Assembly: GCA_048940645.1 (NCBI GenBank)
Contig: JBHLOI010000059.1
Span: 1-20,715, forward strand
Direction: 5' to 3'
From: Promethearchaeota archaeon
Lineage (GTDB): Archaea; Asgardarchaeota; Lokiarchaeia; Sigyniarchaeales; SOKP01
DNA: 20,715 nucleotides
Position 1 is the stretch's first letter. Every line of letters starts with the position of its first letter. A model generated the notes under the pieces. The model ran no database searches, was not told where the DNA came from, and saw only the letters and a list, made by a program, of their open reading frames with translations. Shown in pieces: positions 468 through 6,152 of the stretch. Made by a program: the position numbers and the translations under genes.

Positions 468-825
468 TTTTATTCAAAAACTAATTATATTTTTTTTTAT
501 TGTTTTTAATTACTCTTTATTCATTAATAAGAGTTTAACTTCTGAATTATTATTGAGATAGTCATATTTTCAAAATCAATTAGTTATTTTTTTAAAATGA
601 ATTACGCTATTTCTACTATTTACTTTAAAATCTTAATCTTAATAGAATGGAAGGTATTTCAAATATATTTTTGTATATAATCAAACTCTCAATGCGTTTT
701 ATGAGAAAGTAAAAGCGATAATCTTTAAATCGAAATGAAAAACATTACTTTCATCAATGTAGTAGTTCATATTACTATTTGGGGTAAACTTAGGAAATTG
801 TGATCTGAATAGTCATTTAAAATCT

Positions 826-861
826 AAAGGTTTAAATGTAAGTTATGTGTATAATTTAAAC
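826..861 (+). promoter_or_regulatory. Candidate BRE/TATA promoter for the small basic-protein gene, overlapped by an 8-bp inverted repeat
   Basis: Purine run AAAGG (826-830) followed by TTTAAA (831-836), about 75 nt upstream of the ATG at 908. GTTTAAAT (830-837) and ATTTAAAC (854-861) form an inverted repeat. Confidence 0.35.
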
Positions 862-907
862 ATCTTTTTTAAAAAAATTTAAGAGAATAAGGGAAAAGGG
901 AACAAAA

Positions 908-1012
908 ATGGCAAAGAAGAAGGCTCCTAAAAAAAAACCAGCTCCTAAAAAAAAACCAGCTCCTAAGGGAAAAAGTGCTCCTAAAAAGAAGCCAGCAAGT
1001 AAGAAAAAATAG
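908..1012 (+). CDS. 34-aa Lys/Pro/Ala-rich basic peptide, histone H1 tail-like (MAKKKAPKKKPAPKKKPAPKGKSAPKKKPASKKK)
   Basis: ATG at 908 to TAG at 1012, with a purine-rich leader (AAGGGAAAAGGGAACAAAA) and a downstream T-tract. The repeat units differ largely by synonymous AAA/AAG changes, and both A9 runs keep the frame. Confidence 0.8.
   Translation: MAKKKAPKKKPAPKKKPAPKGKSAPKKKPASKKK
923..1012 (+). repeat. Five in-frame 18-bp tandem units, consensus GCTCCTAAAAAAAAACCA (APKKKP)
   Basis: Units at 923-940 and 941-958 are identical. Units at 959-976, 977-994 and 995-1012 are degenerate. Confidence 0.85.
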
Positions 1013-1034: not shown

Positions 1035-1055
1035 CTTTTTTTTATTCTATTCTTA
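1035..1055 (+). terminator. Oligo-T archaeal-type terminator candidate
   Basis: T8 run (1036-1043) followed by TTCTATTCTT, about 23 nt after the TAG at 1012. Confidence 0.45.
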
Positions 1056-5720: not shown

Positions 5721-6152
5721 ATGGTAAACATTCGTTTTTTGGAAGATAAGGATATTCCTAAATTAGCAAACCTATACTTGAAATTAAGACGGCATACGAT
5801 GAATGTAGGTGGGACTCAAGAAATGATGATAAATTATATTAACCAGAGACTGCCAAAGAAAGGCTACTTTATCTACGTTGCTACGGTGAATGATATCTTA
5901 GTGGGCACTATTGCTTTTGAAATAAAAACTAAGAAAAGTGCTGCAATTTCTGATGCTTATATAGAGCCTGAATATCGCAGGCAGGGAATATTAAAAGAAT
6001 TAGAGCAAAGCGTTATTGAAAATCTGAAAGCTAAGGGTGTGGAAACTCTGGATTTAGTAGTTAGAGTCAATAATGAGGTAGGTAAGGCTACCTGGTCAGC
6101 TTTAGGTTATAAAACGATTATGGAAGTAAGGACAAAATCAATAAAAGATTAG
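5721..6152 (+). CDS. GNAT family N-acetyltransferase
   Basis: Motif A YIEPEYRRQGI and motif B NNEVGKATWSALGY. Starts 14 nt after the NYN stop. Confidence 0.9.
   Translation: MVNIRFLEDKDIPKLANLYLKLRRHTMNVGGTQEMMINYINQRLPKKGYFIYVATVNDILVGTIAFEIKTKKSAAISDAYIEPEYRRQGILKELEQSVIENLKAKGVETLDLVVRVNNEVGKATWSALGYKTIMEVRTKSIKD

Follow-up and report, generated by a model that had tools for sequence, protein, structure and literature searches.

In current work on Asgard chromatin as the forerunner of the eukaryotic kind, lysine-rich histone tails have a central place. A comparable basic tail is the C-terminal domain of linker histone H1, which is about 100 aa long; kinetoplastid H1 consists of the tail only, without a globular domain. 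In bacteria, Pseudomonas AlgP, Chlamydia Hc2 and the C-terminal tail of mycobacterial HupB are repetitive K/A/P polycations that bind DNA. The ribosomal proteins of the eL41/eS32 type are extremely basic at 25-40 aa and are often missed by gene callers. Lokiarchaeia have tailed HLoB histones in abundance, and these co-localise with DNA (bioRxiv 10.64898/2026.07.02.735847).

The window analyzed here is the whole 20,715-nucleotide stretch of contig C113, from an assembly of 3.83 Mb with 29.8% GC and 89.6% completeness. It contains a short gene whose product resembles such tails, and its features are as follows.

821 to 837, forward strand: BRE/TATA-like block (AATCTAAA-GG-TTTAAAT), about 71-87 nt 5' of the ATG and nearly invariant in eight loci of the genus
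846 to 863, forward strand: second upstream block (TGTGTATAATTT..CAT), with invariant columns in alignments A3 and A5
891 to 902, forward strand: purine-rich RBS-like stretch (GGGAAAAGGGAA), ending 5 nt before the ATG and conserved in 8/8 orthologues of the genus
908 to 1012, forward strand: coding sequence of the 34-aa Lys/Pro/Ala microprotein P0001, stop included, recognized by intact orthologues and the codon-position pattern
923 to 996, forward strand: four tandem 18-bp units with the consensus GCTCCTAAAAAAAAACCA, one A-P-K-K-K-x hexapeptide per unit (Tandem Repeats Finder)
1036 to 1043, forward strand: T8 tract resembling an archaeal oligo-T terminator, 24 nt past the stop

The reading frame at 908 to 1012 was intact, with an ATG start and a TAG stop. 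Acidic and aromatic residues are absent from P0001, which consists of 17 K, 7 P, 6 A, 2 S, 1 G and 1 M (50% Lys, 21% Pro, and 18% Ala); in composition alone, this is like the Lys/Ala/Pro-rich basic tail of linker histone H1/H5. It is predicted to be an intrinsically disordered polycation with a net charge of about +17. The repeat at 923-996 had a period of 18, 4.1 copies and 75% matches. The ORF call, the residue count and Tandem Repeats Finder thus agreed with the preliminary description, in which a 34-aa frame with 17 Lys, 7 Pro and 6 Ala had been read in 18-bp units. The minus strand carried no ORF of 25 aa or more across 908-1012. The Lys fraction of P0001 was the highest among the 16,438 ATG-ORFs of 20-80 aa in the assembly. 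In a six-frame scan of the whole assembly for runs of K/A/P/S/G/T residues (at least 18 residues, at least 35% K, and at least two P), P0001 was also the only such run. These results indicate that chance in an A-rich genome did not produce P0001. Furthermore, a search of Rfam gave nothing near the gathering score, no tRNAs were found, and viral contigs contained no match to the microprotein, so an RNA-gene or viral origin of 908-1012 was rejected.

The codons of the eight orthologues of the genus were compared over 27 gap-free positions. The variable columns at codon positions 1, 2, and 3 numbered 5, 3, and 20, respectively (binomial p = 4e-5), and 16 of the 21 variable codons were purely synonymous. 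Lys codons interchanged between AAA and AAG only and none became AAC or AAT, and Asn was absent from every family member, which argues for a constraint on the peptide and not on an A-rich motif in RNA or DNA. Conservation with synonymous change extended to the Ala and Pro positions. Frame-breaking indels in close relatives, named earlier as an argument against the gene, were not found; every length difference among the orthologues was in frame. The AAA share of the Lys codons was 61% across 13 family members compared to 78.6% in the long ORFs of the genome. All-AAA KKK triplets made up 14% in the family and 19% in bona fide long ORFs, against about 49% under independent codon choice. The microprotein genes thus avoid long A-runs as strongly as bona fide genes do. 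The preliminary description had taken an alternation of AAA and AAG as a sign of selection on the protein. The selection was supported, whereas the alternation proved not to be strict: P0001 uses 10 AAA and 7 AAG codons, with two A9 runs. On comparative sequence evidence, 908-1012 is a genuine protein-coding gene under protein-level selection, with its own signals and a histone-tail-like product.

The approximately 90 nt 5' of the start were nearly invariant across the eight loci of the genus. The block at 821-837 was kept even where the flanking genes differ between these loci; its long form is unique in the genome and its short BRE/TATA core occurs four times. It is the probable promoter. 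The block at 846-863 has a single exact copy in the genome and is a candidate for an alternative TATA box or for the start of the 5' leader. GGAG or GGAGA stands at the same distance from the start in the orthologues of the sister genus. Tracts of T6-T9 lie at the same place in 8/8 orthologues of the genus (invariant T columns), and the sister-genus genes have T7-T10 tracts within about 60 nt of the stop, together with a TATA-like block of their own. Judging from the known behavior of archaeal RNA polymerase, the T8 tract probably ends transcription. The conserved upstream blocks, the purine-rich RBS and the T6-T9 tracts in all eight orthologues of the genus bear out the earlier statement that the gene has its own leader and T-tract.

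A PLP-type decarboxylase-like gene was located 0.4-6.6 kb from the microgene in 8/8 genomes of the genus, which indicates that the locus is orthologous across the genus. The downstream neighbor varied: an M28 peptidase gene in the window and in G045, a 318-aa ORF in G022 and G013, a nitroreductase gene in G019, and a convergent 282-aa ORF in G018, G020, and G010. The gene's own T-tract and the species-dependent downstream gene together indicate a self-contained transcription unit, and for the same two reasons a leader peptide was rejected. Further upstream, the intergenic DNA at 690-805, 5' of the putative promoter, is also conserved in G045 and G019. The hydrophobic ORF of 22 codons within it (736-804) is probably not a gene, as its ATG is missing in the relatives G022 and G013. 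The flanking intergenic DNA (468-1298) contained no acidic segment of at least 12 aa with at least 25% Asp+Glu. At 5721-6152, 4.7 kb downstream, the window contains a GNAT acetyltransferase gene. It is one of three grouped genes; the others are an NYN nuclease gene and one that was called RNase H-like in the preliminary description and had no Pfam match.

Relatives were searched for orthologues with the protein, with a profile and with a DNA pattern. Intact single-copy orthologues in the A-P-K-K-K-x register were found in seven further species of the genus (27-38 codons, all starting with MAKK) and in six species of the sister genus of the same family (30-34 codons). Another ten species, four in the genus and six in the sister genus, had stand-alone ORFs of the same design in a K-K-K-A-P-A register, and both registers were mixed in G257 and G046, which indicates one family with two repeat registers. 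The family traits are a stand-alone ORF of 27-38 codons, a MAKK start, hexapeptides of K-K-K with Ala/Pro, an own RBS and a T-tract. With the reversed control pattern, no match was obtained in 135 genomes. The family is present in at least 12/42 species of the genus and at least 12/54 of the sister genus; both values are lower bounds, obtained with strict patterns. The intact frames persist across two genera in 24 genomes. These pattern searches, which follow the earlier proposal to look for syntenic orthologues, returned intact copies in at least 24 genomes, at a locus that is orthologous within the genus. Among 400 genomes of the phylum and 154 of the order, the microgene was found only in the two genera, which belong to one family; the other 265 genomes of the phylum gave no match. 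Since the gene occurs in about 12/42 and 12/54 species, it is accessory and not a core chromatin component. By decarboxylase identity, the holders of the A-P-K-K-K-x register make up 7/10 of the nearest relatives of the window's genome.

In two orthologues, L004:1582-1626 (G019) and L005:1585-1629 (G018), a Lys codon has changed into a stop codon (TAG or TAA), a natural C-terminal truncation. The resulting proteins are 27-28 aa long, and the remnant of the repeat continues in frame to the ancestral stop. These changes indicate that the length of the C-terminus is loosely constrained.

Eleven versions of the microprotein were looked up in a collection of 15 billion proteins, and none was present. 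This result agrees with the earlier supposition that gene callers miss a gene of 34 aa. It also indicates that Asgard annotations systematically lack conserved microproteins. A degenerate hexapeptide pattern gave more than 600 matching stretches in 185,579 species, of which one was confirmed as a close relative, so the pattern alone represents common low complexity. A stand-alone 49-codon gene was noted at L073:8490-8639 on the minus strand, identical in L088 and L089 (metagenome contigs of 35-38% GC). It has six A-A-P-K-K-K repeats and a GGAG RBS, and lies between an ABC transporter gene and a subtilase gene. The neighboring proteins were only 22-38% identical to those of the window's genome, which indicates a distant organism, and the 49-codon gene may point to a wider family or may have arisen by convergence. 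In a full-text literature search, no paper was found that connects such microproteins with Asgard archaea, and the preprint on Asgard tailed histones (bioRxiv 10.64898/2026.07.02.735847) makes no mention of them. The A-P-K-K-K-x register, its link to the K-K-K-A-P-A form and the comparison with the genus's own histone tails are new here, as are the negative results on register co-variation and on promoter similarity given below.

The histone tails used for this comparison came from 30 genomes of the genus, 10 genomes of the sister genus and a single 6.04-Mb relative. A tailed (HLoB-like) histone orthologue was encoded in 35/42 genomes of the genus. Ahead of the fold, its N-terminus consists of MAKKK and a PAPK, AAPK, or APAKK motif; examples of the short tails are MAKKKPAPKAKKGE, MAKKKAAPKAKKGE, and MAKKKAPAKKSE. 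The 6.04-Mb relative, a single-contig genome of the sister family, encodes a 92-aa histone with a longer tail of 27 residues, which starts with MAKKK and contains KKKAPAKKK. The histone of the genus is 58% identical to it over the fold. The order also has single-contig genomes of 4.4 Mb and 6.04 Mb with Loki-type tailed histones. In these sister-family genomes, which may come from cultured strains, the start pattern of the microgene found no match. The window's assembly contained four histone-fold genes, which are short-tailed or tailless (on C125, C52, C69, and C76). A tailed histone was not found in this 89.6% complete assembly, though all nearest relatives have one, and its absence reflects either an assembly gap or a real loss.

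The microprotein has the Lys-rich N-terminal extension of HLoB-like histones, starting with MAKKK and spaced by Ala/Pro, and no histone fold: neither PF00808 nor any other Pfam family matched, and a PF00808 search of the genome did not return the locus. In sequence it thus resembles four to five successive copies of the histone tail motif with the fold left out. The Asgard tailed histones (HLoB/HMpB; bioRxiv 10.64898/2026.07.02.735847) share with it the MAKKK start, the Lys/Ala/Pro alphabet and the host organisms, and tail and microprotein are both disordered and lysine-rich. In contrast to the tailed histone, the microprotein has no fold and is encoded by a separate gene with its own, unrelated promoter. 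It has four to five repeats, compared to one or two in the histone tail of the genus, and is present in about a quarter of the species, while the tailed histone is present in 35/42. The 130 nt upstream of the microgene and of the histone gene were no more alike than shuffled sequences in five genomes, and a recent duplication of the 5' end of the histone gene was therefore unsupported. The repeat register of the microprotein matched that of the histone tail in the genus and failed to do so in five genomes of the sister genus. Co-evolution of the two registers was not supported, as the match tracks phylogeny in the genus and breaks in these five genomes.

The likeness to linker histone H1 was weaker. 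The microprotein shares with the H1 C-terminal domain a K/A/P-rich, strongly basic sequence of low complexity with SPKK-like turns, and it is like kinetoplastid H1 in having no globular domain. Unlike H1, it is 34 aa long, archaeal and narrowly distributed, has no winged helix and has no demonstrable common descent with H1. At E <= 10, Pfam gave no family for P0001 and no Linker_histone winged-helix globular domain, and NCBIfam gave no match. Thirty-four residues of pure repeat are too few for a folded domain of winged-helix size. No Pfam or NCBIfam model for the bacterial H1-like nucleoid proteins (AlgP/Hc2) matched the microprotein either, and AlgP, Hc2, and HupB are much longer or attached to folded domains. 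When the family profile was compared with 1.84 billion representative proteins, there were two matches, both to the tails of longer proteins. One was a membrane-anchored protein with a K/A/P tail, and in the second-best (85 aa), what looks like the last part of an H1 globular domain leads into a K/A/P tail. This result is uninformative on the distribution of the family, since such short ORFs are not called as genes. N-termini with MAKK and AAPKKK were also present in unrelated high-GC bacterial metagenome contigs, which indicates that convergence is easy, as the preliminary description had allowed when it called the similarity compositional. Low-complexity similarity cannot show descent, and nothing here shows descent from or to histone H1. 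The preliminary description had offered two identities for the product, a free histone tail or a proto-linker histone. The former is supported by the shared MAKKK start and Ala/Pro/Lys sequence, while the lack of a globular domain and the restriction to two genera speak against the latter.

We give a probability of about 0.5 to the reading that the microprotein is a diffusible polycation which binds nucleic acid, with chromatin DNA as its most likely target. The lysine-rich repeat would bind nucleic acid electrostatically, and its (A/S)PKK-type turns would fit the minor groove of the AT-rich genomic DNA. Acting in trans like a histone tail or the H1 C-terminal domain, the peptide would neutralize the charge of the DNA, and this would alter the compaction or the bridging of histone-DNA fibers. 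Turns of the (A/S)PKK type are classic minor-groove binders. Chromatin DNA is favored as the target because the tailed Loki histones are abundant and located on DNA, because the genome is AT-rich, and because of the (A/S)PKK turns. The four histone-fold genes of the same genome encode potential partners. We infer DNA or chromatin binding and an effect on compaction from these features. The charge of about +17 also means that the peptide would bind any polyanion (rRNA, polyphosphate, or acidic lipids).

The hexapeptide of K-K-K with Ala/Pro also occurs as an appendage in other Asgard families, on Alba, RNA polymerase subunit D and S25e. The Alba protein (Pfam Alba, E = 3.6e-13) is encoded at L091:1465-1860 on the plus strand in G082, a genome of another Asgard family, and its N-terminus has three K-K-K-A-P-A repeats, which come after an acidic stretch. 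Subunit D (Rpb3-like, with a ferredoxin insert; L092:1447-2451, minus strand, G164) and S25e (L103:1405-2289, minus strand, G360) have long C-terminal tails of the K-K-K-A-P-A type; the S25e frame has 295 aa compared to the 101 positions of the Pfam S25 model. The presence of the hexapeptide on nucleic-acid-binding proteins supports electrostatic binding of nucleic acid, DNA or RNA, as the role of the motif. The motif is not specific to chromatin on two of the three tailed proteins, because S25e is ribosomal and Alba also binds RNA.

A more specific form of the chromatin reading is distinctly unlikely. Here the free multi-copy tail peptide would bind histone-wrapped DNA in trans, would be read, acetylated and deacetylated by the enzymes that act on histone tails, and would serve as a regulator of compaction. 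If this were true, the soluble tail peptide would be a functional analogue, not a homologue, of a linker histone and would have arisen before the eukaryotes. More generally, a separate selected gene for tail-like repeats alone would be an unrecognized player in Asgard chromatin, invisible to gene callers and to tryptic proteomics, which could alter DNA compaction or compete for tail-modifying enzymes. The narrow distribution limits the weight of the finding, and the functional role is a probable one drawn from sequence features.

The alternative that survives best, possible if unlikely, is that a real peptide acts on RNA, as a tiny polybasic ribosome-associated protein or a general RNA chaperone, comparable to the eL41/eS32-type proteins or to lysine-rich extensions on ribosomal proteins. 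In another Asgard family, S25e has the hexapeptide repeat as its C-terminal tail, and Alba, a binder of RNA and DNA, has it as its N-terminal tail; rRNA is the most abundant polyanion of the cell. The eL41/eS32-type proteins are similar to the microprotein in size and extreme basicity. However, they form Arg/Lys-rich helices that have no Pro/Ala repeats, and they occur universally in their lineages, whereas the microprotein is patchy. It matched no ribosomal family in Pfam or NCBIfam and lies outside the ribosomal and translation gene clusters. Its presence in about a quarter of the species of two genera (about 12/42 in the genus) is unlike the universal presence of a ribosomal component. Moreover, its closest sequence likeness is a histone tail.

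It is improbable that the peptide acts as a free multi-copy mimic of the tail which, as a decoy or competitor, would soak up or buffer lysine acetyltransferases, sirtuin deacetylases or tail readers and would tune the modification of histone tails indirectly. Its start is the same as the N-terminus of the tailed histone and it presents the tail motif four to five times over, as such a decoy might. However, the locus has no linked gene for a writer or an eraser, the GNAT gene at 5721-6152 is part of a different gene group, and the register match with the histone tail fails in the sister genus.

We likewise give little credence to a peptide without a role, whether from a young and weakly functional expansion of the 18-bp repeat or from a regulatory translation event such as a Lys-tRNA or stalling sensor. 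The number of repeats varies between species (27-38 aa), premature stops are tolerated in two orthologues, the distribution is narrow, and the A9 runs are slippery or stalling sequences, all of which would suit this explanation. Against it, residues at the Ala and Pro positions, and not at the Lys positions alone, are kept while their codons change synonymously, most of the variation lies at third positions, and the frames are intact in 24 genomes of two genera. The gene's own T-tract and the varying downstream neighbor argue against a regulatory leader. A true evolutionary precursor or homologue of the C-terminal domain of eukaryotic linker histone H1, suggested by the composition, the (A/S)PKK-like motif and the H1-like tail among only two profile matches in 1.84 billion proteins, was already disfavored and has a very slim chance, since the winged-helix globular domain is absent (Pfam), a search of the other 265 genomes of the phylum found no copy of the gene beyond the two genera, similar K/A/P N-termini occur in unrelated high-GC bacterial contigs, and H1 is held to have a separate history in the part of PMC10919886 that cites Kasinsky et al. 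(2001).

Weak matches in frames of 302-440 aa were rejected as orthologues; these are linkers of two longer proteins. The first, a 440-aa DUF4332/helix-hairpin-helix and transglutaminase-like protein (L019:1114-2415, plus strand, with relatives in L008, L009, L011, L021, and L022), has K-K-K-P-S-P or K-K-K-P-A-P as an inter-domain linker. The second, a protein of 352-363 aa from the sister genus (L027:637-1686, plus strand, also in L025 and L028), belonged to no Pfam family. It has four to five K-K-K-P-x-P repeats near its C-terminus, and its N-terminal part looks, by eye, like an actin-regulator domain of the gelsolin/cofilin type.
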